Positions 3,423-18,429 of a stretch of 20,321 bases of DNA are shown here, one piece after another (position 1 is the stretch's first letter; the number at the start of each line of letters is the position of its first letter). Location: assembly GCA_048938895.1 (NCBI GenBank), contig JBHLLU010000064.1, positions 1-20,321 on the forward strand. The letters are read 5' to 3'. The notes under the pieces were generated by a model, which was not told where the DNA came from, searched no databases, and saw only the letters and a program-made list of their open reading frames with translations. Source of the DNA: Promethearchaeota archaeon. GTDB lineage: Archaea; Asgardarchaeota; Lokiarchaeia; Sigyniarchaeales; SOKP01. The translations under genes were made by a program, and so were the position numbers.

Positions 3423-5285
3423 ATGATACCAAAGAAAATGGATATTTTTCTTAAAGAACGATTACCAGAAGCCACTCTAAAAACAAGACTCAAAAAGGAT
3501 AAAGGAAAATGTTTCTTGGAATTCAGTAAAGTAGATGAGCATCTACTATCTCGAATTGGAATCTATGCTGACAAATTAGGACCATATCTTGTTTCTTGTA
3601 TTTGGGATGAACAATCTCCTTTAGAAATTGGTGGATATCTAGTTGTGGATAATTTGAGTATGGGTAAACCGAGTATGGGTGGTATCAGAATGCTTCCTGA
3701 TATATTGCCTTCTGATATTCATAATTTAGCAAGGGGGATGACCCTAAAAAATGCAGCAGCTAATCTTCCATATGGAGGGGGGAAAGCAGGAATAGTGGCC
3801 GATCGAGAGCTCTCCCAAGATAATCATAATGAAGTAATCCGTAGTTTTGCACGTCTAATTAATAGATACAAAGATATTTATGTACCAGGACCAGATGTTG
3901 GTACAAATGATGCTGATATGAAAACAATAGCTATCGAAAATGGGCTGGATAGCGCAGTTTCTAAACCCGCTGATATGGGTGGAAATCGGATCGATGAACT
4001 TGGGGCCGCGGCGGGGGGAATCGTAATTGCACTTCAAACCTTATTAGAGATTCTACCAAGATTGAGAGTACTTACTCAATTTGCAAGCCTAGAAATTCCT
4101 GAAATAAAAGATTTGAAGGTTTTAATCCAAGGATTTGGTGCAGTCGGTGCTCATGCAGCACGTATTCTTAAGAAACGGATTCCAGAAGCAAGAGTAATTG
4201 GAATTAGTGATTTGGAGGGATATTTATACAATGAAGCAGGATTACCAGTAAGTGATCTTTTTAGTCTATGGCAAAAAAATCACCTTGTAACATATAATTA
4301 CTTCCAAAAAAACATCATCTCAGAAGGCTACAAACACCCAATTAAATTTTCGACCAATCGAAACAATTTACTTCTTGAAAGTGCTTTTTGTTTTATCCCT
4401 GCTGCCCCAATATTTAATTATTTAGGAGTTCGTCCTTCTGAATCTCCTACTACTACTGTTGATCGAATGGGAAAGTGGTCATTAATAGTAGAAGGTGCTA
4501 ATACATATAGCCCTGATCCTAACCGGAAAGCAGCCAGGACTAGGATGGAACAAATAGTGTATAGAGAAAGAGGTGTTATGATTGCTAACGATTATTTAGT
4601 CAATTCTGGTGGTGTTATTTTTGCTGCTCAAGAGCACATTATTAAAACTCCAGAACATCTTCAAGTACCCATAGAAATTCTAGGAGATCGTAACAAAGTA
4701 GATAAATGGTTAAATGATCATTCCAAAGAGTTTATAGAACTCTCAAAACAGAGATTAATAGCTGGAGAAGAATATAGGGAAGACGTAATACACCATAACA
4801 TGATTGAACATGTGGACCTTTTAGCAGCAAATCCAGATATGCTTCCTAGCACGGCAGCCGAAAGAATTAGTCTTCAACGTTTAACTGCAAAGGAAAGTGA
4901 ACGAACAGCAAAAGATATCATGATATCAATTCCAACAATTGATGTAAATAGTAATATTCAAGAAGCTGCTGAATTAATGATTAAAGAAAATAGTGGGATA
5001 ATAGCAGTACTTTCCGAAGAAAAACTTGTGGGGGTTATTACAGATTGGGATGTTACTGCTGCCGTAGCCTCAAATAGTTGTGATGCGATTATTGAAAGAA
5101 TAATGACAAAAGACGTAATTACAGCTGCCCCCGATTTTTCTATTGTAGACATAGTCCGAGAATTAGAACAGTTTCAGATTTCTGCAATGCCGGTAGTAGA
5201 AGATGGAAAAGTTTTAGGAATGGTTAATACTGATTTAATAGCTCAACGCTATTTCTTAGAATATCTACAAACTCGTCAATCATAA
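3423..5285 (+). CDS. Glu/Leu/Phe/Val dehydrogenase-family protein fused to a C-terminal CBS pair
   Basis: GGIR, MTLKNA, catalytic GGGKAG, VPGPDVGT, Rossmann IQGFGAVG, VEGAN and DYLVNSGGVI. Two CBS motifs follow from about 4905 (TAKDIM..LVGVITDWD; IMTKDVIT..MPVVEDGKVLGMV). GGGGGA upstream of the start. Confidence 0.9.
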   Translation: MIPKKMDIFLKERLPEATLKTRLKKDKGKCFLEFSKVDEHLLSRIGIYADKLGPYLVSCIWDEQSPLEIGGYLVVDNLSMGKPSMGGIRMLPDILPSDIHNLARGMTLKNAAANLPYGGGKAGIVADRELSQDNHNEVIRSFARLINRYKDIYVPGPDVGTNDADMKTIAIENGLDSAVSKPADMGGNRIDELGAAAGGIVIALQTLLEILPRLRVLTQFASLEIPEIKDLKVLIQGFGAVGAHAARILKKRIPEARVIGISDLEGYLYNEAGLPVSDLFSLWQKNHLVTYNYFQKNIISEGYKHPIKFSTNRNNLLLESAFCFIPAAPIFNYLGVRPSESPTTTVDRMGKWSLIVEGANTYSPDPNRKAARTRMEQIVYRERGVMIANDYLVNSGGVIFAAQEHIIKTPEHLQVPIEILGDRNKVDKWLNDHSKEFIELSKQRLIAGEEYREDVIHHNMIEHVDLLAANPDMLPSTAAERISLQRLTAKESERTAKDIMISIPTIDVNSNIQEAAELMIKENSGIIAVLSEEKLVGVITDWDVTAAVASNSCDAIIERIMTKDVITAAPDFSIVDIVRELEQFQISAMPVVEDGKVLGMVNTDLIAQRYFLEYLQTRQS

Positions 5286-6409
5286 TATTTTCTGATATTA
5301 TATAAGGTGTCTCTTTGTGCCGCACGTTTTCCTGCAGTTTTTATGATTGCTATTATCTCTTCCGGAGGAAGATATTCACCAAAATCTGCTCCTGCACTCT
5401 TAGATATGTTCTCTTCAATTAATGTTCCTCCAAAATCGTTTACGCCATAATTTAGAGAGACTTGAGCCAATTTGGGACCTAATTTTGGCCAAGAACATTG
5501 TAAATTATCAATATAATTATTTAGAAATATCCTTGAAACACAGAATAACTTTAAATCTGCCATTCCATAATTTGGGTTTAAAGGATGTGCTTCTAATCTC
5601 GATAACATCGGTTTTTCTTTTACAAAAGGTAAAGGTACTAATTCTGTGAATCCTCTCGTCTCTTTTTGAATTTCTCTTAGAATATTTAAATGCTTTATTC
5701 TATCATTATTCGTTTCAATATGTCCATACATGATTGTTGATGTTGTCGGGATTCTTAAATTATGCGCTGTGGTGATAATATTAATCCACTGTTGAGTAGA
5801 TACCTTGTTGGGGCATATAATTTTTCTGACATCATCAACTAAAATTTCTGCCGCAGTACCAGGGATTGAATCTAATCCTGCCTTTTTTAATTCTTTCAAG
5901 GTTGTCTCGATTGAATTACCGTATAATTTTGACATGAAAAAGATTTCTTGAGGTGAAAACGCATGAGTATGCAAATTTTTATCAACCTCTTTAACCATTT
6001 TAAGAATATCTAAATAAAAATCAAACCTGAGTTCAGGATTTATCCCTCCCTGAATACATACCTCTGTACAGTTTAAATTTTTTGCTTCAATAGTCCGCTC
6101 TTTAATTTCATCCAATGTAAATAAGAACGCATCTTCATGATTAGCTGGTAGACTAAATGAACAGAATTTACAACCTTGAAAGCATATATTTGTGAAGTTA
6201 ATATTGCGATTAATTACAAAGGTTACAATATTCTCTTTTTTATCTAGGCAAAGCTCATTTGCTGTATATTGTAGCACTAAAAATTCTTTTCCCTGAACAC
6301 CTAGTAGTTTTAAAGCCTCATCAGGGGTGATCTCAATATTATTTAATGCCTTCTTTAAAATTGCCTTTGTTTCTCTTTCTATGTGATTAAAAATATCAGT
6401 ATCCATCAT
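5276..6409 (-). CDS. cofH: FO synthase subunit CofH (radical SAM)
   Basis: VTFVINRNINFTNICFQGCKFC (CxxxCxxC), EVCIQGG, HAFSPQEI, GLDSIPGTAAEIL, TTSTIMYGHIE, GVNDFGGTLIEENISKSAGA; adjacent to cofG. Confidence 0.93.
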   Translation of the reverse strand: MMDTDIFNHIERETKAILKKALNNIEITPDEALKLLGVQGKEFLVLQYTANELCLDKKENIVTFVINRNINFTNICFQGCKFCSFSLPANHEDAFLFTLDEIKERTIEAKNLNCTEVCIQGGINPELRFDFYLDILKMVKEVDKNLHTHAFSPQEIFFMSKLYGNSIETTLKELKKAGLDSIPGTAAEILVDDVRKIICPNKVSTQQWINIITTAHNLRIPTTSTIMYGHIETNNDRIKHLNILREIQKETRGFTELVPLPFVKEKPMLSRLEAHPLNPNYGMADLKLFCVSRIFLNNYIDNLQCSWPKLGPKLAQVSLNYGVNDFGGTLIEENISKSAGADFGEYLPPEEIIAIIKTAGKRAAQRDTLYNIRKYYD

Positions 6410-7505
6410 TATTTATATTATCTATGACTTTTTTAATACTTTCTGAGCAGAAACCACTTCTCGATATAAATTTTTCATAAATTGGAAGTCTTTCCTTGAG
6501 GAGATAACCATTAGAGCTGCAAATTTTGCTTAACTCATCGATGTAAGGCCATGGGTTCTCTGGATTTACATAATCCAAAGTAAATGGTGAAATTCCCCCA
6601 AAATCATCAATCCCCATTTCAATAAATTCCTTTTCATATCCGGATATTAAATTTGGAGGTACCTGAATAGCAATATTATTTTCAAATATTATTCTCGCAA
6701 TTCCAACGATTCTTAGAATCTCATCAAAACTGATTTTTTTTTTTGGTTGGTAGGGAATTCCGGGTTTATTTACAAAATTCTGAATAATTATCTCTTGAAT
6801 ATGACCATAAGTATCATGAATATTTTTAATTAAAAATAAATCTTTTATTCTATCGTTTATAGATTCTCCTATTCCTAAAAGGAGACCTGTAGTAAAAGGG
6901 ATCTTCAACTTTCCTGCATTTTGAATATGTTCTATACGCTTTTCAGGGATTTTTCCAGGCGATTGCTCATGTACACCTCCCTTCTCATATAATTTCATAC
7001 TTGTGCTCTCGAGCATAAGCCCCATACTGGCATTGTAGCTCTTTAATTGTTTCAGTTCATTAAAAGTAAGGATTCCAATATTTGTGTGAGGTAATAAGTT
7101 CAACTTCAACAAATTACTAGAAATTTCACTCACAAATTTAATGAAATTAGTATACTCTCTCTTTTTTAATTCGTTTCTAACATTTTCAAAGACCTCAACT
7201 TTTTCCCCTGACATAATTAATGTTTCTTTACAGTTATAATCAATACCCTTCTGAATTATTTCTTCCATCTTTTCTTTTTCAAGTAAAACGACATTTTGCT
7301 CCATCCCTAACTTGGGAATTCTATGGTTATAGAAACAATATCCGCAGAAATTTTGACAATAATTTGAGAGAGATAATGTAAAATTTTTAGAATACGTGAT
7401 TAAATAACGTTCTTCTTTTGGTAATTCAGATTTAATCTCTCTGACATTCTCCCTTAGTTTTCTAAGAGGACTTTTTTTGAAATAATCTATATTTTTTTGA
7501 ATCAT
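6396..7505 (-). CDS. cofG: FO synthase subunit CofG (radical SAM)
   Basis: ITYSKNFTLSLSNYCQNFCGYC, LLPHTNIG, NASMGLMLE, IPFTTGLLLGIGE, GHIQEIIIQNF, IQVPPNL, DDFGGISPFTLDYVNPENPWP. Confidence 0.93.
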   Translation of the reverse strand: MIQKNIDYFKKSPLRKLRENVREIKSELPKEERYLITYSKNFTLSLSNYCQNFCGYCFYNHRIPKLGMEQNVVLLEKEKMEEIIQKGIDYNCKETLIMSGEKVEVFENVRNELKKREYTNFIKFVSEISSNLLKLNLLPHTNIGILTFNELKQLKSYNASMGLMLESTSMKLYEKGGVHEQSPGKIPEKRIEHIQNAGKLKIPFTTGLLLGIGESINDRIKDLFLIKNIHDTYGHIQEIIIQNFVNKPGIPYQPKKKISFDEILRIVGIARIIFENNIAIQVPPNLISGYEKEFIEMGIDDFGGISPFTLDYVNPENPWPYIDELSKICSSNGYLLKERLPIYEKFISRSGFCSESIKKVIDNINNDGY

Positions 7506-8173
7506 AACATATTCCGTTTATATTTTAGCATAACATAATTATTTCGGCAGCTTAAATTAATTAGATCATATTTAGTGGCCTCACTCATAGTATCAAAACC
7601 GAAACCCTCAACCAAACTGATTGCTTCTTTACCACCAACAATCCAAGGCGCAACTGTTAACCTAATTTCATCTACTAAATCCTCTTTAATGAAAGTCCAG
7701 TTTAAATTCCCCCCTCCTTCAAGTATAATTGATTTTATTCCAGATTTTTTTAGGAGTGGCATAAGATTTCGCAGATCGACACGTTCTCCTTTTCCTGATT
7801 GAATTATTTTTATATTATGGCTCTCAAATTTCTTTATTTTACTAACTGGAACATTTTCTGTTGTACAGATGATTGTAGGGTAAATTTCTGGTTGGTATGA
7901 TATAACATTTGATTCTATTGGGATTGATAACTTACTATCAACAACAATTCGAAAATATCCATTATGTTCAAAAAATTTTATGTGTAATTTTGGATTATCA
8001 TTTAGAACTGTATCCTTTCCAACCATAATAGCATCTACTTGGCTGCGTAGTTTATGAACTTCCCTCCAATCTTCTTCATCCGAAAGCTCAGAATCACCGG
8101 ATTTTGAAGCAATTTTCCCATCAATTGTCATAGCCGCACTTAATATTACATAAGGTTTTTTATATTCTTTCAA
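7502..8173 (-). CDS. arfC: 2,5-diamino-6-ribosylamino-4(3H)-pyrimidinone 5'-phosphate reductase (RibD-C/Rib7/ArfC type, no deaminase domain)
   Basis: PYVILSAAMTIDGKIA, VHKLRSQVDAIMVG, DNPKL, RIVVDS, ILEGGGNLN, LVDEIRLTVAP; ATGA overlap with cofG. Confidence 0.88.
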   Translation of the reverse strand: MKEYKKPYVILSAAMTIDGKIASKSGDSELSDEEDWREVHKLRSQVDAIMVGKDTVLNDNPKLHIKFFEHNGYFRIVVDSKLSIPIESNVISYQPEIYPTIICTTENVPVSKIKKFESHNIKIIQSGKGERVDLRNLMPLLKKSGIKSIILEGGGNLNWTFIKEDLVDEIRLTVAPWIVGGKEAISLVEGFGFDTMSEATKYDLINLSCRNNYVMLKYKRNML

Positions 8174-9329
8174 ACACTACTTCTCCTTTTATATAAGTCT
8201 TTTTTATATTCTCTGATTTTAATCTTTGTACAATAACATCATAAATATTGGAATTGTTTAAGTTTTTAGTATAAAAATTTGGGTCATTCAGGTCAACAAG
8301 AAAGAAATCTGCCATTTTTCCCTCAGAGATTGATCCCATTTTATTTTCTAGCCTAAAGTTTTTAGCTGCATTAATGGTAACCATTCTTAAGAGCGCTTTT
8401 GAGGTTAATTGTATTGTTTTGTCATAACTTCCTAATACTCTAAAAATTCGGTATATATAGCGCATTTCTTCAAAAAGATCCGAATTATTGGTCATTAGAT
8501 TATCCGTTCCTAAGGATACAGGAATTCCAAGTTTTAGTATTTCCGTTATAGGTGGAAATCCCACACCAAAATATCCATTTGAACGAGGGCATAAAACTAA
8601 TGCCTTCTCCTCCTTTTGTATTTGTACTAAATCGCTTTTAGTTAATTTTGTTCCGTGAATGATAATATCGACCAAATTATCTTTGAAGAGACTCTCTAAT
8701 ATTTTAGAATCGCGAATGTTCTCAGCACAATGACATGCTATCATCTTTTCAAAATCTAATTTTGATTTTGCAATATAATTTTTATTATTCATTGAAATCT
8801 GATCATAACTTGCTAGCCCCACACCATCCGCTAGCTCAAATATTAAACCTATTTCACTCTCATCCATAAACCTCCCATATATTCGACAATTAATTGGTGT
8901 TTTTTCTAAAATTTTCCTTAGAAGGCTTACACCTTCAATTCCTCCTTCTCTAAAATCTATAAAACAGGTAATCCCACTCGAAAACATTTCTAAAATTGCT
9001 TTCTCTATGCCAAATCTAATGATTTCCTGTGAGGTTTGTCTTAACAACTGATGTTTTAGACCAAATGGTGGAGCAACAATTTCATTTAATTCTTTATTAA
9101 TTCCAATCTCTTTAGCAAAACTATCACCAATATGAACATGAGAATTTATCAAACCAGGAATTAATAACGTAGATTGGTCAATTTTTAATGGTTGAAGGTT
9201 TTCTTCAGGATTTTCATATGAAATCTTATTAATTTTACCTTCCTTATCAATTTCTATAAATACATTCTTCGCTAAATCTAGATCATCCCCAATTAATGCA
9301 TAGGGACTATGGACTATTGTTTCATGCAT
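8160..9329 (-). CDS. Metal-dependent amidohydrolase (TIM-barrel, deaminase-like)
   Basis: PGLINSHVHIGD (HxH), DFREGG, CHCAE, IIHGT, LCPRSN, LGTDN, TINAA, GSISEGKMADF; first gene of an overlapping operon with arfC-cofG-cofH. Confidence 0.85.
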   Translation of the reverse strand: MHETIVHSPYALIGDDLDLAKNVFIEIDKEGKINKISYENPEENLQPLKIDQSTLLIPGLINSHVHIGDSFAKEIGINKELNEIVAPPFGLKHQLLRQTSQEIIRFGIEKAILEMFSSGITCFIDFREGGIEGVSLLRKILEKTPINCRIYGRFMDESEIGLIFELADGVGLASYDQISMNNKNYIAKSKLDFEKMIACHCAENIRDSKILESLFKDNLVDIIIHGTKLTKSDLVQIQKEEKALVLCPRSNGYFGVGFPPITEILKLGIPVSLGTDNLMTNNSDLFEEMRYIYRIFRVLGSYDKTIQLTSKALLRMVTINAAKNFRLENKMGSISEGKMADFFLVDLNDPNFYTKNLNNSNIYDVIVQRLKSENIKKTYIKGEVVFERI

Positions 9330-9527
9330 TATTATGTTCTCTGAAACATAATGATTGAACGAGTTATTTTAATATATTACTATAACATTAAGTTATTTCA
9401 AATTATCTAATACTCAGTAAAAATGATTTATTTTAATTTATATTAACTATTATAACCGATTCATCTTTTTCTAATTTAGAGAAAAAAATAAGTTATATAC
9501 AGGTGAATTAGAATTCACAAATTTAAA

Positions 9528-10472
9528 ATGGATCTTCAAGATTCTGGGTCAGAATTTGATATTGCAATAGATAAAGTTGGGATTGTCGGACTAGAGAAAA
9601 AAGTTGAAATTGTACAAGAGAATAAAAAATACTCATTTTATCCTAAGATTTCTGCACTAATAAACCTTCCTGCTCAGCAACGTGGCATTCATATGTCGAG
9701 GACTTCGGAAACTATAGAAGAAGTGATAAACGAGGTAATCTTTAAACCCACTCCAACAATCGAGTTAGTTGGAGATAGGATAATTCGAAAATTATTAGAA
9801 AAGCATCCATATACTTCAAAAGCGGAAGTGAAATTAGAAGGAAAGATTGTAGTTCAAGTCAGAGAAAATAATACAAGAAATATCCAAAAATCTTACGATA
9901 TTAGCTCTTTTGTTAAAGCTAAAAGAAAAGGAATTGGTGAAATTGATTACATATATTTTATTGGGGCTAGTGCTGTAGGAATGACGGTATGTCCCTGTGC
10001 CAAGGAGATGTCACAAGAATATGCTGCTGAAGTCATCAAAACACGGAAAGATATTAATGTTTCAGAAGAGGACCTTAAAAAATTAATCAATATTCTTCCA
10101 TTTTCATCACATAATCAGAGATCAATTGGAACGATAATCCTGCAGATAAAAGATCTATCTAACCATAAAATTGATGTTTTAGATATAATCGATGTGATAG
10201 AAGAATCTATGAGCGGTAAAATCCAATCCGTATTAAAGAGACCAGAGGAAGCTGAATTGGTAAGAACTGCTCACCTAAAACCACTATTCTCTGAAGATGT
10301 TATAAGAGAAATGGCAAAGAATTTCATTCTAAGAGATTTTCCAAATCTTGAAAATAATTTTGAAATTAAATTTAAAATTGAATCTTTAGAAAGCATACAT
10401 TTACATAATGTATATGCTGAATTAAAAACTACAATAGGGGAATTAAAAAACAAATTACAAGCAAAAAATTAA
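9528..10472 (+). CDS. mptA: GTP cyclohydrolase MptA (FolE2/GCYH-IB family)
   Basis: DLQD..IDKVGI, QRGIHMSR, GMTVCPCA, SHNQRS, LKRPEE, FSEDVIR, ESIHLHNVYA; GGTGA upstream. Confidence 0.88.
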   Translation: MDLQDSGSEFDIAIDKVGIVGLEKKVEIVQENKKYSFYPKISALINLPAQQRGIHMSRTSETIEEVINEVIFKPTPTIELVGDRIIRKLLEKHPYTSKAEVKLEGKIVVQVRENNTRNIQKSYDISSFVKAKRKGIGEIDYIYFIGASAVGMTVCPCAKEMSQEYAAEVIKTRKDINVSEEDLKKLINILPFSSHNQRSIGTIILQIKDLSNHKIDVLDIIDVIEESMSGKIQSVLKRPEEAELVRTAHLKPLFSEDVIREMAKNFILRDFPNLENNFEIKFKIESLESIHLHNVYAELKTTIGELKNKLQAKN

Positions 10473-10490: not shown

Positions 10491-11696
10491 TTATTTCCTA
10501 TTATTTACAAAGTGCTTTATTACAATTATATAACTTTTAACAGGTAAAATTTTTGGATTTTTTTTATAACTAGCTGGAATTGGAGCATTGCACCTAGAAC
10601 ACAAGTTTGAACTTCTCAACCAATCCCTAAATTCATCTGCATGAGCAGGATATCTACAATTTGGGCATAAAATTATTCCCCTTCCTCTATCTTCGGGAAG
10701 TTTAGGCAATTTAAAACAAAAAATGCATTTAAAATCCTCTTTTGATAAGCGTGCTGCATTAGGTTTATATATATTAAAATTAGTTATTTTTCTCATACTC
10801 TTTTGGCTACGTACTTGACTTCCTGTTGATCCTGTCCTTGTAGTTTTAGTTGATGTTTTAACACTTGTAGTTGCAGATCTTCTCTGTGAGGTCGGTGTTG
10901 ATCTTGATGAATGACTTACAGTTCTTGATCTATTAGTCACAGTTCTAATTGAAGGTGTTGGAGTTGCTCTTATAGTTGTCCGAGTGCTTTCTCTATATCT
11001 TCTTGGCGTTGTATTAGATCTAGGTGTTGTTAATTGGTTTAATCTATTTGTACGTTGAGTGATATAATCTCTAGTTAGCTGGGGCAATCGGGATCTTGTT
11101 CCAAATAATCCCGGAATAATTATTATTAAGATTGTAACTATAAGCAATATCAAAAGATTAAGATCTACAAAGAGATGAGCAGGTAGGAAATAAGGATCAT
11201 AAAAGTCGACAAGAGAATAAAAACTTAACCAATATATTACAATGAAAAGCACAATTGAAATACTCAAGATATAACCAAATTTACGCGCATCGATAGATTT
11301 AGTACCAAAATAAATCACATTATATTTCTTAAAGCAACGATAAAGAGAGATTGAACCATATAAAATATAGGGAGACCCGAATAGAATACTCCACCAACTT
11401 AAATATAAATCGGTACTTTCTAAAAGATTTTCACCTAACAAACCTGTAAAATTCCCCCAAATTGAATAAAAGATTCCAATAAAAAGAGGAGCTATAGTAA
11501 AAAATGCGGTATTATGAGGTGAGTTATATTCGCGGTGCTGTTTAATGTTTTTTAAAACTTTAAAAGAAAATATTAACCAGATCCCAATCAATAACCAGCT
11601 AATAAAGACATTAACGGAATTTAGGATTGCCCCATGAATTATTCCTATAATTGTAAACACAAGGAGTAGTAGGACTATTGATTTAGTTTTTACCAC
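10491..11696 (-). CDS. Multi-pass membrane protein with C-terminal RING-variant zinc finger (putative E3 ligase)
   Basis: About 6 hydrophobic segments in residues ~7-200, then a ~100 aa Thr/Ser/Arg-rich low-complexity linker. It ends in C-x2-C-x16-C-x2-C-x4-H-x2-E-x3-W-x6-C-x2-C (nt 10590-10727). Last gene of the Ubl-E1-E2-JAMM run. Confidence 0.72.
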   Translation of the reverse strand: MVKTKSIVLLLLVFTIIGIIHGAILNSVNVFISWLLIGIWLIFSFKVLKNIKQHREYNSPHNTAFFTIAPLFIGIFYSIWGNFTGLLGENLLESTDLYLSWWSILFGSPYILYGSISLYRCFKKYNVIYFGTKSIDARKFGYILSISIVLFIVIYWLSFYSLVDFYDPYFLPAHLFVDLNLLILLIVTILIIIIPGLFGTRSRLPQLTRDYITQRTNRLNQLTTPRSNTTPRRYRESTRTTIRATPTPSIRTVTNRSRTVSHSSRSTPTSQRRSATTSVKTSTKTTRTGSTGSQVRSQKSMRKITNFNIYKPNAARLSKEDFKCIFCFKLPKLPEDRGRGIILCPNCRYPAHADEFRDWLRSSNLCSRCNAPIPASYKKNPKILPVKSYIIVIKHFVNNRK

Positions 11697-11725: not shown

Positions 11726-12559
11726 TTAATCTTCATCATATTCTAGATATACCGGCTTTCCCTGAATAATGGGATTCATAAAATTTAGTATTTCTGGAAG
11801 CATGCGAATGTCTAGTGACCCTTTAATACCATAAACTAAGGGATACCAACTCTTAGTGGTTAAATCAGCACGATAAATTTCAAAGCCTGCTGAAGTTCCG
11901 TTAATAAGGTATGGATCTATAACAAGTGCAACAGCTTTATTCCAAAGTTTTTGGTATCTTGCTTGAGTGCCAATATCTTCGTTAGACATAAAACATCCAT
12001 AAGAAGGATGACTATGTGCCCAACCACAAATAAATAACTTTTGTTTTTTAATATCTTGAAAGGCTCTAGCATAATTTCTATAATCTTTTATTTCAGCATA
12101 CACTGCTGTTCCATGACCCATAGGATAGTAATCCTCAATATGTAAAATGCCATATCTATCAATTACTTTTCCTGCAAGTAGTCCTATTACTTCTACCCAA
12201 TTTCGTTTGGGAATTCTAGAATTCGCATACTTAAGGGCATGACTTGCTACTTTTAGAATTGCTTTTACTGAAATGTATACTTCCTTTTCTATTTTTTCAT
12301 CATTATTACTTATTTCCTCTACGTTTATTGTGTCTGATCTAGCCTGAATGGTATTTGAATGCTTAATTGTTTGCTTTTCGGGAGTTTTTTTAGAAATCAT
12401 CGAGCTAATTTCATTAACTAATTCTTTTTCTTCAAATTTTAATTCTTCATAAATTTCTTCTAATAGTTCCTTTTTAATTATGTCTTTAATTTTCAATTTT
12501 ATCGTCTCTTTAATAGAGTCTATATGTTTATTTTCTTCTCCCATTCTGTTTTTCACCAC
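11726..12559 (-). CDS. JAMM/MPN+ metallo-isopeptidase (Rpn11/AMSH-like) with N-terminal helical extension; ATG at 12544 is a likely alternative start
   Basis: ISVKAILKVASHA, catalytic EVIGLL, GWAHSHPSYGCFMSNED (HxH-x7-S-x2-D), ALVIDP. Confidence 0.92.
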   Translation of the reverse strand: MVKNRMGEENKHIDSIKETIKLKIKDIIKKELLEEIYEELKFEEKELVNEISSMISKKTPEKQTIKHSNTIQARSDTINVEEISNNDEKIEKEVYISVKAILKVASHALKYANSRIPKRNWVEVIGLLAGKVIDRYGILHIEDYYPMGHGTAVYAEIKDYRNYARAFQDIKKQKLFICGWAHSHPSYGCFMSNEDIGTQARYQKLWNKAVALVIDPYLINGTSAGFEIYRADLTTKSWYPLVYGIKGSLDIRMLPEILNFMNPIIQGKPVYLEYDED

Positions 12560-13080
12560 TTTTTAGTAGCATACTTTTTAACAAGAGTTTTTACTTTTTT
12601 TTCAAAAAGTTTCTGATTTTTCATCATTTCTATTGCTGCCTTTTTATTGAAAACATCAGTTGGATTTACATACTTACCTCGTGTGTTTAACATGGCGATT
12701 ATCGCCTGAACGACAGTAACAGCTGATTTTGATGGACTCCAGCCACCCTTTTTTCCAACTAGTGATGGATCTACTAATGCCAAACATATATTTCTCTGTC
12801 CTTTATATTCACTCGGCTTTGCCCAAAAATTCGGATGCCAAATCGGTGTGTGTAATCTAACAAATGGTGGCTGCTTAGGATACTGAGTAGGAAATCTCAT
12901 TTCTAACTTAAAGAGACCACCTGCATAAGCCGTACCCTTGGGACCTTTAATAGTCATTGCTAAATGATCTATACTCTTTCTTTGAGGATTAAATGGTTTT
13001 AACTGAATTATAGTTCCTTGTTTATATAATTTTTTTAATCCAGCAAAATCTTGGGAGATCCGACTACTTCTTATACTCAT
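12553..13080 (-). CDS. Ubiquitin-conjugating enzyme E2
   Basis: IKGPKGTAYAGGLFKLEMRFPTQYPKQPP, TPIWHPN, catalytic Cys in NICL, WSP, NPTDVFNKKAA. Confidence 0.93.
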   Translation of the reverse strand: MSIRSSRISQDFAGLKKLYKQGTIIQLKPFNPQRKSIDHLAMTIKGPKGTAYAGGLFKLEMRFPTQYPKQPPFVRLHTPIWHPNFWAKPSEYKGQRNICLALVDPSLVGKKGGWSPSKSAVTVVQAIIAMLNTRGKYVNPTDVFNKKAAIEMMKNQKLFEKKVKTLVKKYATKKW

Positions 13081-13180: not shown

Positions 13181-14416
13181 TTATTTGAATTTAAGAGTTA
13201 CAAAAATTTCTCCTTCCTTAAATCCTGCAATTGTTAAAAATTCATAATCTCTTAAACCGTTTTGAATTGGATTCTGTTCTAAATCTATCATTTTGACATC
13301 GTTAAAATCCAGTAATGTTATAACAGGTTCTAGATCAGGATCTAGTTTAAAACCATGATTTTCTAAGGTTTTAATTACATTACTACATGGAGAACTTTTA
13401 TTCAACTTCACTACGAATCTTCGAACATCTTTACCACATTGAGAACATTCTGGGTTCCTTTTCTTTTCAATATGATAAAACATCATGGTTATTCCATTAA
13501 AAATAACATATGTTTTGATAGGTTGACCTAAACCCTTATGACCTTTATTCCAATGAAGAATTTTTACAACTTCATGCGATTGTAATGCAGAAATAATTGC
13601 ATTGATGGTTATAATTCCTGGATCATGCCTATCAATAATTTTAACAATATCATCTTCAGTATACTCAGGGAGGAAATTGTGTTTGTTTACCAGTTCATTA
13701 GCAATTTTTTGAATATACTTAATATCATCAATGTTCTTTGGATTGGGGTCCCTGTCAAAGTTTTCCTTAAAGGCCATATCTCCCTTGAAAACACAGTGAA
13801 TTCTTTTTCTCGGTACGCCAACGACTGTACATGCTGCCATCTCATCACTTGCTCCCACTGGGAGAGGATTACATTCATAACATGCATTTTTGTAAGGAAA
13901 AACGGTATAAACATGACCATGGTAACCTGATACTCCTCCATCTACTAAGGGTTTTCTAAATCTAATACACTGAGCATTTAAATTTAAACGAGCGTTCATG
14001 GAGTCGAGACCCCCCACGACAACATCAGCTGCCTTATATAATTCTGGATCCAATCTTTCTAAGGAACTATAATACCCTTTGATAACTATATTCGGATTAA
14101 TTTCACTTAATTTTTTTGCAGCAACATTTGCTTTAGGTTCTCCTAACTTAGCACCTGCAAATAAAATTTGACGATTTAAATTTGAATGTTCTATAATATC
14201 TAGATCTACCAAATCTATATGACCCACACCTAACATTGCTATGTTCTTCGCAATTTCGCATCCTAATCCACCAACTCCCACTATTAAAACTCGAGAATTT
14301 TTTACTAGTTTCTGTGACCATCCCTCAAGTCTAAATTGCCTATCATATAAATTTCGTTCTTCTGATGTTAGATCTTTACTAAAAAAATCTGAACTCTTTT
14401 TCATTATTTTCACCAA
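13181..14416 (-). CDS. Ubiquitin-like activating enzyme E1 (ThiF/MoeB fold with Uba2/Uba3-like catalytic Cys segment); ATG at 14404 likely start
   Basis: YDRQ, VGVGGLGCE, DLDIIEHSNLNRQILF, Zn pairs CYEC and CSQC, catalytic segment ACTVVGVPRKRIHC, and a ~80 aa C-terminal extension in the position of a ubiquitin-fold domain. Confidence 0.92.
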   Translation of the reverse strand: MVKIMKKSSDFFSKDLTSEERNLYDRQFRLEGWSQKLVKNSRVLIVGVGGLGCEIAKNIAMLGVGHIDLVDLDIIEHSNLNRQILFAGAKLGEPKANVAAKKLSEINPNIVIKGYYSSLERLDPELYKAADVVVGGLDSMNARLNLNAQCIRFRKPLVDGGVSGYHGHVYTVFPYKNACYECNPLPVGASDEMAACTVVGVPRKRIHCVFKGDMAFKENFDRDPNPKNIDDIKYIQKIANELVNKHNFLPEYTEDDIVKIIDRHDPGIITINAIISALQSHEVVKILHWNKGHKGLGQPIKTYVIFNGITMMFYHIEKKRNPECSQCGKDVRRFVVKLNKSSPCSNVIKTLENHGFKLDPDLEPVITLLDFNDVKMIDLEQNPIQNGLRDYEFLTIAGFKEGEIFVTLKFK

Positions 14417-14493: not shown

Positions 14494-14826
14494 CTAACCC
14501 GCAGTACTTGCAGGAATCAAAAGAATATCATCACCATCATTGACATTATAGTCTCTCAAAGAACTATTTTCATCCATTGTAACTCCGCCAGAAGATAAAT
14601 GAAAATCATTTGGATCAAGCCCATAAAGATTACCTAAAGTTCGCTTAATATCTCTTACTTGATTACTGTCATTAACTGTTAATTTTTCTTTTTTTTCTCC
14701 AGGACCAATAGTTGACATGAAATATAAAGTAAGTTTTTTTCCTCCAGAAGGAGTCTTAGAGGCAGGAGTTTTAGATCTTAAAGGTTCCTCCTCACCTAAA
14801 TTTTCATCAAATTCATCAAAACTCAT
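14494..14826 (-). CDS. Ubiquitin-like modifier 1 (beta-grasp fold, acidic N-terminal tail, C-terminal ..LIPASTAG)
   Basis: Ubl pattern LTV...V.DIK...FHLSSGGVTMDENSSLRDYNVNDGDDILLIP; ends in Gly immediately before TAG; directly upstream of E1. Confidence 0.9.
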   Translation of the reverse strand: MSFDEFDENLGEEEPLRSKTPASKTPSGGKKLTLYFMSTIGPGEKKEKLTVNDSNQVRDIKRTLGNLYGLDPNDFHLSSGGVTMDENSSLRDYNVNDGDDILLIPASTAG

Positions 14827-14930
14827 TCAAAACACTTCCTTTTTTTTGTTATTTCTTGATTTTTATTTAGTTATTAATTTTAAACTTAATAAGAACATAT
14901 TAAAAAGATAATATAAAATCAATTGGAATG

Positions 14931-14960
14931 ATTTTGAAGTTTTTTTAAAAACATCAAAAT
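14931..14960. promoter_or_regulatory. 30-bp dyad in the divergent Ubl1/wHTH promoter region (candidate operator)
   Basis: ATTTTGA-A-GTTTTT-TT-AAAAAC-A-TCAAAAT: 13 of 14 arm positions pair. The AT-rich context lowers its significance. Confidence 0.45.
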
Positions 14961-15076
14961 TGAGATGGAGGAAATTACGATTTAGAAGAAATTATACTAT
15001 AAATTGTATGAATGCCTATTAATATATATACAAATATACAAGACCAAAAATTTCAATGCTATAAAAACATAAGCTT

Positions 15077-15748
15077 ATGAATTCTTTGGATAATGCAGAA
15101 TCTATTGTTCTTGAATTAGTAGAAGAGTATTTAGTGAAAAAAACCTTTTTTTCTGTAAGAGAAATTATATCGTTTATTAGTAATAGAGTGAGGTATAATC
15201 CTAATATAAATGAGAATAGAATTGAATTAATCTTAAAGGATTTAATTAAACAAAGAATTATTCTTCCTGGTACAAGATTAATGAAAAACAATATTATTGA
15301 ACATCCAAAAAGGAATGAGATCTTTAATTACATCAAGAAGAATCCCTCAAATATTAATGAAATAATGAAAACCCTGCATATCGGTAGTAATCAAGCTTTA
15401 TGGCATTTATCATGTTTAGAAAAATTCCAATTCGTAAGATCAAAACAAATTAACAATCATAGAGTTTTCTTTAAATTTGAATCAAATCCTAAATATGACG
15501 AGTTATATTATTATTTGAAAAAAGAAATTCTTCAAAAAATAATTCAGTTTATGGATCAAGAGAATAGAGCATTAAAAATTACAGAAATAGCAACTGGTTT
15601 AAAAAAAAATCATAATACAATCAAAAAATACTTGTCTATCTTAACGGATCTGAAATTAATAAATATTGAAAAGGATATTAAGAGAAAACTCTTCAAACTT
15701 AACAAAAAGAATTACATAAAGATAAAAAAATTAATTAATGGTGGTTAA
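15077..15748 (+). CDS. Multi-domain winged helix-turn-helix transcription regulator (ArsR-like tandem wHTH)
   Basis: KRNEIFNYIKKNPSNINEIMKTLHIGSNQALWHLSCLEKFQFV and LKITEIATGLKKNHNTIKKYLSILTDLKLI are two wHTH units; there may be a third at the N-terminus. Confidence 0.8.
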   Translation: MNSLDNAESIVLELVEEYLVKKTFFSVREIISFISNRVRYNPNINENRIELILKDLIKQRIILPGTRLMKNNIIEHPKRNEIFNYIKKNPSNINEIMKTLHIGSNQALWHLSCLEKFQFVRSKQINNHRVFFKFESNPKYDELYYYLKKEILQKIIQFMDQENRALKITEIATGLKKNHNTIKKYLSILTDLKLINIEKDIKRKLFKLNKKNYIKIKKLINGG

Positions 15749-15833: not shown

Positions 15834-16625
15834 ATGAAAAAAAAAAATAGAATTTTTAGTATTTTTGCTCTTTTTGCTGTCTGTATTTTTATTTATGTTC
15901 TTTTTTTCTTATTTCGTATCAAAAATTATTCCTTATTTCTCATTCTATCGATTGGTAGTGTTGCTGTTCTATCTACTAGTACTGTGTATACAATTATTCA
16001 ATCTAAAGGTAGTTGGGAAGATAAAATAAAAAGAAAAAAAATACCTGAACCTAAATCAATTAAAATGAAACCTGTTGATATCATTGAATACTATATTGAT
16101 GCTATACCTTTAATTAAAGAGTATGTTGAATCAGATGAAAGTTATAAGGATATGGAAATAATCGATAAGTATATTTTTTCAGTTTTTAGTAAGGAAGAAT
16201 TAATTAAAATAAATCTCCTTGATTTATCTCCAATTGATAAAATTAACTTCATCCAAGAAATGCTTTATTTTGATTCAAATGAAAGAAAGACCTTGTTTGA
16301 AAATATGTTGAGAAATAGAGATAAAGTTGATGAAAAAGTTACTTATACACCGATTCTAAGTACTTATGATACTGAAGACCAGATTCGTGTTTTTATAAGA
16401 TCATTAGTTGAACCCGGTGATAAAACAAAAATATTAATAATTAACACTGATGAATTTATTGGTATATTAAAAGAAAAAATAGGCATAATATTTGATTATA
16501 CTCCAGAAAGTTTTTTACTCTCTTCAGGAGGAATATTGTTAGATGATCAATCACAAATAAAAGACTTCAATATAGTAGATGATGATGAGATAGCTTTAAT
16601 TCCCTCAAGAAAAAATAGAGGATAA
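15834..16625 (+). CDS. Membrane-anchored protein (2 N-terminal TM segments) with C-terminal ubiquitin-like domain ending in Gly
   Basis: Hydrophobic residues ~8-27 and ~33-56. Residues 183-263 (nt 16380-16622) align by eye with the neighbouring Ubls (FLLSSGGILLDDQSQIKDFNIVDDDEIALIP vs FHLSSGGVTMDENSSLRDYNVNDGDDILLIP). It ends ..RKNRG-stop. Confidence 0.82.
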   Translation: MKKKNRIFSIFALFAVCIFIYVLFFLFRIKNYSLFLILSIGSVAVLSTSTVYTIIQSKGSWEDKIKRKKIPEPKSIKMKPVDIIEYYIDAIPLIKEYVESDESYKDMEIIDKYIFSVFSKEELIKINLLDLSPIDKINFIQEMLYFDSNERKTLFENMLRNRDKVDEKVTYTPILSTYDTEDQIRVFIRSLVEPGDKTKILIINTDEFIGILKEKIGIIFDYTPESFLLSSGGILLDDQSQIKDFNIVDDDEIALIPSRKNRG

Positions 16626-16663: not shown

Positions 16664-17071
16664 TTACCCCGCTGTACTTGCTGGAATTAACAAAATGTCG
16701 TCACCATCATTTATATTGTAATCTTTTAAAAATGAACCCTCATCCATAGTAACTCCACCAGAAGATAAATGAAAATCAGCTGGATCTAATCCAAATAAGT
16801 TTGCTACCGTTTCTTTAATATCTCCAACATTATTGCCCGTATTTACATTTAATTTCTGCTTTTTCTCACCTGGACCAATAGTAGACATGAAATATACGGA
16901 AATCTTTTTCCCTTCAGTAGTAACTCTTAGTGCAGGAGTTTTGGATTCAACTACTTCTTCAGGAGTCTTAGTAGAAGGTTCTTCTAAATCTTCTTCCAAA
17001 TCTTCGTCTAACTCTTCATCTAACTCTTCATCCAAATCCAAATCCTCATCAAAATCATTGTCAAATCCCAT
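16664..17071 (-). CDS. Ubiquitin-like modifier 2 (paralogue of Ubl1, longer acidic tail); start reassigned to ATG 17071
   Basis: The core is near-identical to Ubl1 (YFMSTIGPGEKK, DFHLSSGGVTMDE, NDGDDILLIPASTAG). MGFD matches Ubl1 MSFD, and AGGAGG at 17085-17090 lies upstream. 135 aa. Confidence 0.9.
   Translation of the reverse strand: MGFDNDFDEDLDLDEELDEELDEDLEEDLEEPSTKTPEEVVESKTPALRVTTEGKKISVYFMSTIGPGEKKQKLNVNTGNNVGDIKETVANLFGLDPADFHLSSGGVTMDEGSFLKDYNINDGDDILLIPASTAG
16979..17035 (-). repeat. 12-bp tandem repeat (about 5 copies) encoding L-[DE]-E-[DE] in the Ubl2 tail
   Basis: TTGGATGAAGAG / TTAGATGAAGAG / TTAGACGAAGAT / TTGGAAGAAGAT / TTAGAAGAA on the minus strand. Confidence 0.75.
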
Positions 17072-17307
17072 TAAAATTATATAACCTCCTTTGTTATGAA
17101 TACATATACATAAAAGAAATTTAAATATATAAATAGAATCGAGATATAAAAGAATAAATCTCAAAATAAAATTAATGACCTCATTTAACTGCATTATTAA
17201 AAATGCAAAATATTTAAAATTCTTTTCAGGACTTATTTTTAGTAAAATGCAAACACTTTAGAGTCGGGGTTAATATGAAATTATTAGCATAATTAGATAT
17301 TAAATGA

Positions 17308-18429
17308 ATGTATATGAATGAAGAACCTATTCCAAAACATAAGATTAGAGAAAAAACACCAGAAGAAGAGATGGATCTTCCACTCGATAAAAGACTATTA
17401 AAAAAAATTAAAAAAGAGAGAATAGCTTTAGATAAAGAAAAGAGTGAGTGGGAAAAAGTAGTTAACCAAATTGAAAATTATAATGATAATATCAAAAGTC
17501 TTGAAATAAAAAGGAAGAACCTAGAAACTGAGGTCAGAAACCTCACCGAAAAAAGGGATTTATTACGAAATGACTTAAAACAAGCGAGAAATGACATTGA
17601 AAAACAAAAAGACGATTTAGCTTTGAAAGAAAACCAGTTAAGAGAGAGATATAGGAGAAAAAATGAAGAACTAAGCGAAAAGAAAGCTCAACTTGACAAA
17701 TTTCAAGAGAAATTAGATAATTTACGGGAGGAAATAAGTAGAGACAAAAATGATTTAGAAAATGAAAAGCAAAATTCAGAGAACCGCTTAAAAGAGATCA
17801 AAACAAAACTTCCTGGGATGGAAAGAAGAGAGAGTGCTTTAGAAAGAACTATTAATGATTTAGAAGATAAGTTAATGGATTTAAGAGATGAAGCAAAAAA
17901 TCTAACTAAAGAACGCGATAGCCTAAAAAGGGAAATAATTGATGAAAGAAATAGGATAGCTGACGAAAAAAGAAGGTTAAAAGAAGAACGAGAAAAAACT
18001 CGATATAGGAAAAAAGATTTAGATTTAAAAGCACGTGAAATTGAAAAAAAAAAAGAAGATTTAAAAAAATATAGAGATAAAATAGATAAGGACTCAAATG
18101 ATCTAGAAAAAAGAACCCGACAACAAGACACAAGATTTAAAGAATTAGAAAGGAAAATTCCTCGAGCTGAAGACAGATACAACTCCTTAATGCATAAAAT
18201 CCCAAATTTAGAAGATAAACTCAAAAAGTTAAATGAGGATTATAAAAAAATCGCAAAGGAAAAGATTTCACTAGAGAATGAAAAAAATACCATCAGGAGA
18301 GAACGAGAAAAACTTGAGAAAGATAAACAACGATTCTTAAGAGAAAAACGAGATTTTGAAAAAGAAATAAGGAAAATTAAAACTATCCCTAAACATAAAA
18401 TCAGATCAAAAACTCCTTCAAACTACTAA
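17308..18429 (+). CDS. Long coiled-coil protein with internal ~116-120 aa repeat and matching terminal motifs
   Basis: K/E/R/L-rich heptad-like sequence with no ATPase head. IPKHKIREKTP at the N-terminus and IPKHKIRSKTP at the C-terminus. Confidence 0.8.
   Translation: MYMNEEPIPKHKIREKTPEEEMDLPLDKRLLKKIKKERIALDKEKSEWEKVVNQIENYNDNIKSLEIKRKNLETEVRNLTEKRDLLRNDLKQARNDIEKQKDDLALKENQLRERYRRKNEELSEKKAQLDKFQEKLDNLREEISRDKNDLENEKQNSENRLKEIKTKLPGMERRESALERTINDLEDKLMDLRDEAKNLTKERDSLKREIIDERNRIADEKRRLKEEREKTRYRKKDLDLKAREIEKKKEDLKKYRDKIDKDSNDLEKRTRQQDTRFKELERKIPRAEDRYNSLMHKIPNLEDKLKKLNEDYKKIAKEKISLENEKNTIRREREKLEKDKQRFLREKRDFEKEIRKIKTIPKHKIRSKTPSNY

Follow-up and report, generated by a model that had tools for sequence, protein, structure and literature searches.

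Ubiquitin folds that are built into membrane proteins and are not conjugated, as in the TMUB, HERP and MUB proteins, are regarded as a eukaryotic elaboration. The HERP-type ubiquitin-like (UBL) proteins of the endoplasmic reticulum membrane follow the same integral, non-conjugated theme as the TMUBs, and the MUBs of plants and animals are prenylated (CAAX) ubiquitin-fold proteins at the cytoplasmic membrane face, also non-conjugated and proposed to serve as docks for enzymes. TMUB1 and TMUB2 are membrane UBL proteins of the RNF185-Membralin ligase complex, and their UBL is placed between N- and C-terminal transmembrane segments (PMC7482433). Soluble ubiquitin-like modifiers (Ubls) of archaea, Asgard archaea included, have been described in an operon context with E1, E2 and JAMM genes (PMC5654768; 10.1101/2023.07.25.550441), and in Bacillus subtilis the membrane protein SdpI has been proposed to bind an adjacently encoded ArsR-family autorepressor, SdpR, on the cytoplasmic side (PMC2910880). 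Here we analyse a 20,321-nucleotide stretch of DNA from a Promethearchaeota archaeon (the window; contig C126 in a genome of 4.65 Mb and 98.7% completeness; GC ~30%), in which a ubiquitin-type operon lies close to the gene of a 263-amino-acid (aa) membrane-anchored UBL-domain protein, called memUbl in the following (15834..16625, + strand, stop included; delimited by the list of open reading frames (ORFs), the translation and full-length homologues).

On the evidence of its sequence and of those of its relatives, memUbl is a type-2, integral and non-conjugated UBL-domain protein. We think it rather probable that it binds the adjacent ArsR-like winged-helix protein and so anchors it to the membrane, with its Ubl domain acting as a non-covalent handle or signal for the ubiquitin machinery. 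Like TMUB1/2, memUbl is integral to the membrane and has a non-conjugated UBL, predicted in its case to be cytosolic, and it stands beside a membrane RING ligase, here a possible one; it differs from them in that both of its transmembrane helices are N-terminal and its Ubl is C-terminal, after a helical module, whereas the TMUB UBL lies between transmembrane segments. Homology to the TMUB family outside the Ubl fold was not found in Pfam and NCBIfam scans, which returned ubiquitin only and were made without a direct pairwise comparison. With the MUBs memUbl shares a non-conjugated ubiquitin fold held at the cytoplasmic membrane face, but it has two transmembrane helices and no CAAX box, ending in SRKNRG without a cysteine (SRKEKN and similar in homologues). 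With the soluble Ubls of archaea, of which those of Asgard archaea end in di-Gly and in some cases carry a short pro-peptide, it has in common the fold and an operon with E1, E2 and JAMM genes; memUbl is membrane-bound and has no conserved Gly, whereas the soluble modifiers are free and keep theirs. The likeness to SdpI-SdpR lies in a membrane protein gene beside an ArsR-like winged-helix gene (18/20 loci; 16/21 for paralogues). In contrast to SdpI, however, the binding element would be a soluble helical module and not transmembrane helices, the regulator has three winged-helix units, and a Ubl is attached. Pfam and NCBIfam scans of memUbl, in which only ubiquitin matched, gave no SdpI homology, and the resemblance to SdpI-SdpR, or to an anti-sigma factor, is by analogy a functional one only. 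In these terms memUbl is best described as an archaeal variant of the membrane UBL-adaptor theme and not as a member of the TMUB, HERP or MUB families. We found no published description of a membrane-anchored Ubl from Asgard archaea, or of the tail-module/winged-helix pair described below, in the accessible parts of the literature, including PMC9192718, 10.1101/2023.07.25.550441 and PMC10936438, the supplements of which may hold gene tables.

An earlier sequence-only reading of this DNA had described an ORF ending in ...LIPSRKNRG-stop, with two N-terminal transmembrane helices, a helical middle and a C-terminal Ubl; the translation agrees, and the architecture is borne out by hydropathy, an AlphaFold2 (AF2) model, Foldseek and BLASTP. 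Kyte-Doolittle means over 19 residues reach 2.88 in the first hydrophobic segment (residues ~7-27; 15852..15914, +) and 1.87 in the second (residues ~33-55; 15930..15998, +), and AF2 folds the two as a helical hairpin (helices 4-26 and 32-57), with an outer loop of only five to six residues between them. A basic juxtamembrane linker (residues 56-78; 15999..16067, +), delimited by its mean charges and predicted to be disordered (AF2 confidence, pLDDT, <50 at residues 59-78), leads into the helical middle module (residues ~79-165; 16068..16328, +). There AF2 places helices between residues 80 and 160, at a pLDDT in 10-residue blocks of ~50-57 (residues 81-120) and 73-82 (121-160), and a profile search and a complex prediction point to a docking site for a winged-helix protein. 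The ubiquitin-fold (beta-grasp) domain follows (residues 183-257; 16380..16604, +; located by BLASTP, Pfam, AF2 and Foldseek), and the protein closes with the tail SRKNRG (16605..16622, +), delimited by a family alignment of C-terminal ends. A search with the memUbl protein gave 337 database matches at E<=1e-3, and the best 120 of these, a number that includes the query, are homologous over nearly the full length; this whole-protein search covered one length class, and every length class was covered for the middle module alone. Full-length homologues are present in 24/24 genomes of the same genus.

The mean charges in the memUbl family are +3.5 for the N-terminus, +0.6/-0.7 for the inter-helix loop and +8.5/-2.5 for residues 56-80 after the second helix. 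Because both the N-terminus and the stretch after the second helix are basic, the positive-inside rule gives an N-in/C-in topology, in which the Ubl domain and the other soluble parts are predicted to face the cytoplasm. The side on which the Ubl lies, which the sequence-only reading had left to topology prediction, is thus predicted to be cytoplasmic and not extracellular. The second helix is Ser/Thr-rich and highly conserved: S42, L46, S47, T50 and Y52 are invariant, and V43, A44, T48, S49 and T53 are kept in at least 90% of the family. This exceeds the needs of a mere anchor, and the strong conservation of a Ser/Thr-rich helix suggests that it makes a specific helix-helix contact within the membrane.

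The Ubl domain is modelled as a beta-grasp with a pLDDT of 75-91 in 10-residue blocks and can be superposed on ubiquitin, its best matches in the PDB being Caldiarchaeum ubiquitin (6fno_D), NEDD8 and ubiquitin (Foldseek; E ~4e-6 to 2e-5; TM-score (target) 0.78-0.92). Pfam PF00240 matches it at E 1.7e-5 with 24.9 bits, against a gathering cut-off of 25.4, and many memUbl homologues carry a precomputed match to the same family. Two soluble Ubls flank it. Ubl-A (110 aa; 14494..14826, - strand; delimited by Pfam and orthologue ends) is 32% identical to memUbl (BLASTP; E 3e-17), and Ubl-B, compared over its listed ORF at 16664-17194 (-), is 40% identical (E 2e-19); the two are 72% identical to each other, and both end in ...LLIPASTAG. 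Ubl-B is convergent with memUbl and probably occupies 16664..17071 (-), since its listed 176-aa ORF extends to 17194 while orthologues begin at an internal Met (MGFDNDFDEDLD..., MGFD..., ~17071), where its translation probably starts. Mature Ubl-B carries a long acidic N-terminal extension that is absent from Ubl-A. The motifs SSGG and D[YF]N..D.D.I.LIP, which the sequence-only reading had seen in memUbl and both flanking Ubls, are confirmed by translations and alignment. When 28 membrane and 42 soluble copies are aligned, 22 columns, among them a PGEK loop and an LSSGG turn, show identical conservation in the two groups, and 21 others, including the tail, are group-specific. The Ubl domain of memUbl is a paralogue of both flanking soluble Ubls, in a relation far beyond chance. 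The pattern of shared and group-specific columns suits a Ubl domain that has kept some partners in common with the soluble Ubls and is no longer activated.

Activation by E1 requires a Gly at the end of a tail whose length is set, and memUbl does end in Gly. The sequence-only reading had proposed that E1 might charge memUbl, such that conjugation would tether targets covalently to the membrane. Its remark that the tail is basic and one residue longer than that of the soluble Ubls is correct (SRKNRG against ASTAG after LIP). The Gly itself, however, is not conserved. Among the 119 homologues (the best 120 of the 337 matches, query included), a terminal Gly occurs in one, P0005, which ends in SRKDRG; the usual ends are SRKEKN, SRKEKS, SRKERN or plain SRK. 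The count is 1/19 for memUbl loci of the same genus, the exception again being this close relative (P0005 / L002), and 0/8 for further genomes, six of which belong to a second genus, g14, giving 1/27 for other genomes overall; among more distant cluster representatives with a complete end it is 0/6. No conserved Gly is present anywhere after LIP in the tails of the 119 homologues and 27 other genomes. At each of the last three positions the residue varies (N, S, K, D, T, R, E, G, L) or is absent, and at least 90% of the family keep R259 and K260. Among the nearest relatives (76-77% identical) the terminal residues are G, R and E, the codons of which are single-base neighbours of the GGA codon in the window, which indicates that the last position of memUbl is drifting.

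The soluble Ubls of the same loci present a different picture, with -AS[TIV]AG ends in 31/32 ORFs of the genus loci and 7/8 of the eight further genomes (38/40 overall), and in the two exceptions -AG is followed by a six-residue extension. These two are Ubl-B orthologues (L012:1075-1464, +, and one in L032, -) with IITYRK and CYIERI after the -AG, and they look like pro-forms that await C-terminal processing, perhaps by the JAMM protease of the operon. Since the Gly is kept on the soluble paralogues and not on memUbl in the same loci and genomes, selection evidently maintains it on the soluble copies only; the conserved R259 and K260 place the memUbl tail under some constraint, though not that of an E1 substrate. 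A conjugatable (type 1) Ubl is marked by a conserved C-terminal Gly, which memUbl lacks, and in type 2 UBL proteins the Ubl is one domain of a larger protein and has no activatable end, which is what is found here. With the terminal Gly not conserved, memUbl reads as a non-conjugatable integral UBL-domain protein.

It follows that a conjugatable memUbl, whose terminal Gly is activated by E1 and which the cascade then uses to tether targets to the membrane, is highly improbable. The idea draws on the Gly without extension at the end of memUbl here and in P0005 / L002, on the paralogy of the domain with the modifiers of the operon, and on the adjacent E1, E2 and JAMM genes. It has to contend with the absence of the Gly from 118/119 homologues and 26/27 other genomes, with the drift of the last codon by single-base changes among relatives at 76-77% identity (R, E, G), and with a tail that has no second Gly or small residue and is one residue longer than the cognate -AS[TIV]AG. 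The sequence-only reading had itself made the idea depend on conservation of the terminal Gly in homologues, which is not observed, and an E1-charged modifier that tethers targets to the membrane is left unsupported.

The middle module provides the sole evidence for a partner of memUbl. A module profile (alignment A2, residues 58-178, 20 loci), searched against 1.84 billion cluster representatives, matched 68 proteins at E<=1e-3, among which the membrane-Ubl proteins are just the top few. The large module proteins, of up to 2081 aa, begin with an N-terminal signal or transmembrane segment and carry ectodomains before the module (LamG, TSP3 repeats, right-handed beta-helix, bacterial Ig, FG-GAP, WD40/PQQ propellers). 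In these receptor-like proteins the ectodomain is followed by one transmembrane helix, a Lys-rich linker and then the module at the C-terminal end; in 27 of the 31 matches of at least 350 aa, the module ends no more than 10 residues from the C-terminus. From this placement behind an ectodomain and a transmembrane helix, the module is best read as a mobile domain that forms the cytoplasmic tail of receptor-like surface proteins. A Cys-rich finger stands just before it in 22/68 module proteins and gave only sub-threshold B-box, RING, IBR and double-zinc-ribbon matches; in the receptor-like proteins P0139-P0189 (loci L034-L053) its pattern is C..H...C..C....C..C...C..C. No family could be assigned to the module itself from Pfam (best E 0.014, nothing consistent), from PDB sequences (one match, at E 1) or from the ESM Atlas (no usable match). 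When 150 other genomes from the phylum were sampled, the module was found in 21/25 of the window's own family and 0/125 of other families, and its Ubl-bearing form in the genera g1 (4/4) and g14 (11/12), counts that describe the sample and are no proof of absence elsewhere.

Directly upstream of memUbl, at a distance of 85 bp and on the same strand, lies the gene of a 223-aa triple winged-helix (ArsR/SmtB-like) protein (15077..15748, +). It adjoins memUbl in 18/20 genus loci, the other two being cut or masked. The gene of a second module protein in the same genome (contig C78, 439 aa) is directly followed by that of a 223-aa winged-helix paralogue, which is 33% identical over the full length (E 2e-37). 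Of 21 further module loci, namely C78 and 20 from other genomes, 16 have a full-length winged-helix paralogue (215-246 aa) as the immediate same-strand neighbour of the module gene, and in four of the five misses the module ORF is cut by a contig end. The winged-helix gene is upstream of the module gene in the sub-type nearest the window's module (five loci, together with the membrane-Ubl loci) and downstream in the other sub-type (11 loci). The genome encodes four full-length winged-helix paralogues, of which three adjoin a module protein. At one of these, on contig C68, the pairing predicted a module that the first profile had missed, and a broader profile (A4) then found it at the end of a 424-aa surface protein encoded directly upstream of the winged-helix paralogue (L054:2031-3305 and L054:1323-1994, both -), the third such pair in the genome. 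Directly upstream of this pair, L054:3395-4411 (-) encodes a 338-aa protein, paralogous to the ectodomain protein, which stops just behind its transmembrane helix and has no module. The fourth winged-helix paralogue (351 aa; contig C137, L055:5732-6787, +) is fused to an N-terminal hydrophobic transmembrane segment of its own, and may be regarded as a covalently membrane-anchored version of the same pairing idea. The identity matrices of 16 paralogous pairs correlate in a Mantel comparison with r = 0.81 (0/5000 permutations as high), and those of the second sub-type alone with r = 0.54 (16/5000), values that are inflated by kinship among the rows.

A physical association is predicted as well. 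Complex prediction from the winged-helix alignment (A3, 34 rows) and a module alignment (A4, 20-112, corresponding to protein residues 77-169) gave an ipSAE of 0.78 (0.77, 0.80 and 0.78 in the individual runs), a measure of the model's own confidence, against 0.00 for the best of three controls; the partners had a pLDDT of at least 83, and at least 90% of contacts were common to the runs. The mark is reached by 58/80 solved complexes and 2/110 mismatched pairs, counts that calibrate it only roughly because our own alignments were used. We know of no solved complex of this kind, which makes it unlikely that the prediction reproduces a structure already seen by the model. The top contacts join the conserved YIFS strand of the module (F115) to residues 24-27 and 61-65 in the first winged-helix unit, and later module helices (F139, L154, M158) contact residues 103-117, the third helix of the second unit, the recognition helix of which thus falls within the predicted interface. 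Nine module positions are invariant in the memUbl family, and by hand count seven of them (Y87, Y97, F115, F139, E142, Y145, E150) lie in the interface, which comprises 40/93 module residues. The middle module is accordingly predicted by modelling to bind the triple winged-helix protein, and it is this protein, not E1 or E2, for which there is evidence as a partner of memUbl.

What kind of protein the module would bind is addressed by the winged-helix sequence and model. AF2 gives three tandem winged-helix units at a pLDDT of 90.3. Pfam matches are to HTH_5 (6.5e-7) and HrcA_DNA-bdg (2.4e-6), and PDB profile matches to 5duk (6.5e-7) and ArsR-family 2p4w (3e-4), then to Sso10a, Lrs14 and TFE. 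A single unit superposes on ArsR with a TM-score (target) of 0.71, and the whole model matches a Pol III subunit, SelB, UFL1-DDRGK1, ESCRT-II and ScpB loosely (0.24-0.34). As many multi-winged-helix proteins match at this level, the fold search cannot separate a regulator from a scaffold; on its sequence profiles, a DNA-binding ArsR-like regulator is favoured over a scaffold. The partner might nonetheless be a tandem-winged-helix scaffold that, together with memUbl, provides the soluble Ubls with a membrane-bound platform for ligase-like activity or sorting, in the manner of ESCRT-II or of the DDRGK1-UFL1 pair, which serves the UFM1 system and is anchored in the ER. This we consider quite unlikely. 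Foldseek does match the model to the UFL1-DDRGK1 chimera 8b9x (E 9.7e-5) and to ESCRT-II 2zme (E 1.5e-4), the would-be recognition helix of the second unit is hidden in the predicted complex, the genes lie in a ubiquitin operon, and 22/68 module proteins have a Cys-rich finger beside the module. However, the matches to 8b9x and 2zme have a TM-score (query) of 0.25-0.31 and a root mean square deviation above 11 A, as for any multi-winged-helix protein; the sequence profiles favour the DNA-binding ArsR/SmtB, Sso10a and Lrs14 families; and the fingers stay below threshold for B-box, RING and zinc ribbon. In addition, the two other pairs of the genome have no ubiquitin-system gene among the ORFs listed around them, in narrow and partial views (L022, 3.1 kb with ORFs of at least 150 aa; L054, first 5 kb with ORFs of at least 100 aa) with no domain search on the flanking ORFs.

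The reading that we favour brings these elements together. A two-helix hairpin would anchor memUbl in the cytoplasmic membrane with its soluble parts in the cytoplasm, and the middle module would dock the triple winged-helix protein encoded 85 bp upstream, such that memUbl tethers, and probably sequesters, a regulator-type protein at the membrane. The same module and winged-helix gene pair is used by receptor-like surface proteins, in which the ectodomain could supply the signal. In memUbl, a Ubl domain takes the place of the ectodomain, and given this exchange and the short outer loop its input should come from the cytoplasm. The Ubl is a paralogue of the Gly-terminated modifiers of the operon that has kept much of their surface and has no activatable end. 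It might then be read non-covalently by E1, E2, JAMM or the membrane zinc-finger protein of the operon, coupling these to the tethered regulator, and a non-covalent handle or built-in signal for the ubiquitin machinery is its most likely role. Several observations weigh against this reading. The memUbl of this genome and of one close relative does end in Gly. The NCBIfam matches of the winged-helix protein to ArsR/SmtB (8e-9) and SdpR (1.5e-6) are both under the curated cut-offs, and the multi-winged-helix scaffolds that do not bind DNA (UFL1-DDRGK1, ESCRT-II, ScpB) match it at similarly low TM-scores. At L041, a module locus, no winged-helix neighbour appears in the stretch examined. Conserved positions are not enriched on the winged-helix side of the predicted interface (5/28 among 39/223 interface residues, with ~4.9 expected; hand count). 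Finally, the kinship behind the correlation of the pairs and the nature of the complex score, noted above with the values, count on the same side.

The ubiquitin-type operon runs on the minus strand from Ubl-A through genes for an E1-like enzyme of the ThiF family (13181..14416, -; Pfam ThiF 7.3e-60), an E2 (12553..13080, -; UQ_con 5.4e-26, with an HPN...C motif in the translation) and a JAMM/MPN protease (11726..12559, -; JAB 2.2e-13) to a last gene for a 401-aa polytopic membrane protein whose translation ends in a C-terminal Cys/His zinc finger (10491..11696, -). This protein has a long Ser/Thr/Arg-rich low-complexity linker before the finger (C-x2-C...C-x2-C...H...C-x2-C), and is tentatively a possible membrane RING-like E3. 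The finger gave only sub-threshold RING and zinc-ribbon matches (EL5 RING, listerin RING, Prok-RING_1), for which reason neither this protein nor the fingers of the module proteins are called E3 here. The winged-helix gene and memUbl are divergent from Ubl-A, and across the loci examined memUbl constantly adjoins Ubl-B and is near Ubl-A.

This setting bears on a second possibility that the sequence-only reading had raised, namely a membrane dock or decoy of the MUB or TMUB kind, the Ubl of which binds E1, E2, JAMM or the zinc-finger protein, with the winged-helix gene merely regulating the operon. The non-conjugated dock fits a drifting Gly and a predicted cytoplasmic Ubl, but the partner that emerged is the winged-helix protein and not E1 or E2. 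A dock or decoy by itself, although rather unlikely, would be in keeping with a non-conjugatable Ubl that has 22 columns identical with the soluble Ubls (PGEK loop and LSSGG turn included), with the constant place of memUbl beside Ubl-B and near Ubl-A, with a Cys/His-finger membrane protein in the operon, and with the membership of mammalian TMUB1/2, also UBL-bearing membrane proteins, in a membrane RING ligase complex (PMC7482433). It would leave unexplained both the strong predicted interface between module and winged-helix protein and the presence of the module in many Ubl-less receptor-like proteins paired with winged-helix paralogues. A dock is compatible with the tethering of a winged-helix regulator by memUbl, and may be its missing half.

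The fused Ubl could also act on the anchor itself. In eukaryotes, the ubiquitin-fusion-degradation (UFD) pathway ubiquitylates fused, non-removable ubiquitin. By analogy, the Ubl of memUbl could be a built-in degron or acceptor that the cascade ubiquitylates, whereupon the anchor would be extracted or degraded and its partner freed. The Ubl is permanently fused, non-cleavable and without a conserved Gly; lysines shared with the soluble Ubls are conserved (K213 invariant, K197 and K199 in at least 90%), though they may be structural; and TMUB2 is one of the substrates of the ligase complex to which it belongs (PMC7482433). The proposal is a purely inferential one, and we rate it as very unlikely. 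A wider variant would have the ubiquitin cascade control, through the non-removable Ubl, the release of a membrane-tethered winged-helix regulator of the Ubl-E1-E2-JAMM operon. In that case the Ubl would be a pseudo-substrate, by which free E1/E2 capacity is reported, or else an acceptor that undergoes ubiquitylation and extraction, and the activity of the pathway would set the release of the regulator; the receptor-like relatives with zinc fingers would release their regulators on outside signals. We regard this variant as unlikely.

Between Ubl-A and the winged-helix gene, the divergent intergenic region (14827..15076) contains long blocks that are invariant across 15 loci aligned with MAFFT, including TGGAATGATTTTG and AAGAAATTATATTATAAATTGTATGAATGCCTA. 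These are candidate promoter and operator elements; inspection for an operator-like repeat in them was by eye alone, and no repeat is claimed. Beyond Ubl-B, a 373-aa Lys/Glu-rich coiled-coil protein (17308-18429, +) is syntenic in nearly all loci of the genus, and a further soluble Ubl copy of 112 aa is encoded elsewhere in the genome (G000:C53:18797-19063, +). Upstream of the Ubl operon, 5276-10472 is an ordinary cofactor-biosynthesis cluster with two radical-SAM CofH/CofG-like genes, RibD_C, an amidohydrolase and a type I GTP cyclohydrolase FolE2.

A membrane-anchored UBL-domain protein thus stands in an archaeal E1/E2/JAMM operon in at least two genera, duplicated from the operon's own modifier, with the Gly end lost, and the split of ubiquitin folds into modifiers and adaptors would also have arisen in archaea. 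As a two-gene unit, the tail module and the triple winged-helix protein offer a concrete candidate for how members of this archaeal family might signal across the membrane. Eukaryotes release some membrane-bound transcription factors in a ubiquitin-dependent manner, as with Spt23 and Mga2. If ubiquitin-controlled release of the winged-helix regulator were true, it would be a prokaryotic forerunner of this logic, within a signalling family specific to one family of Asgard archaea.

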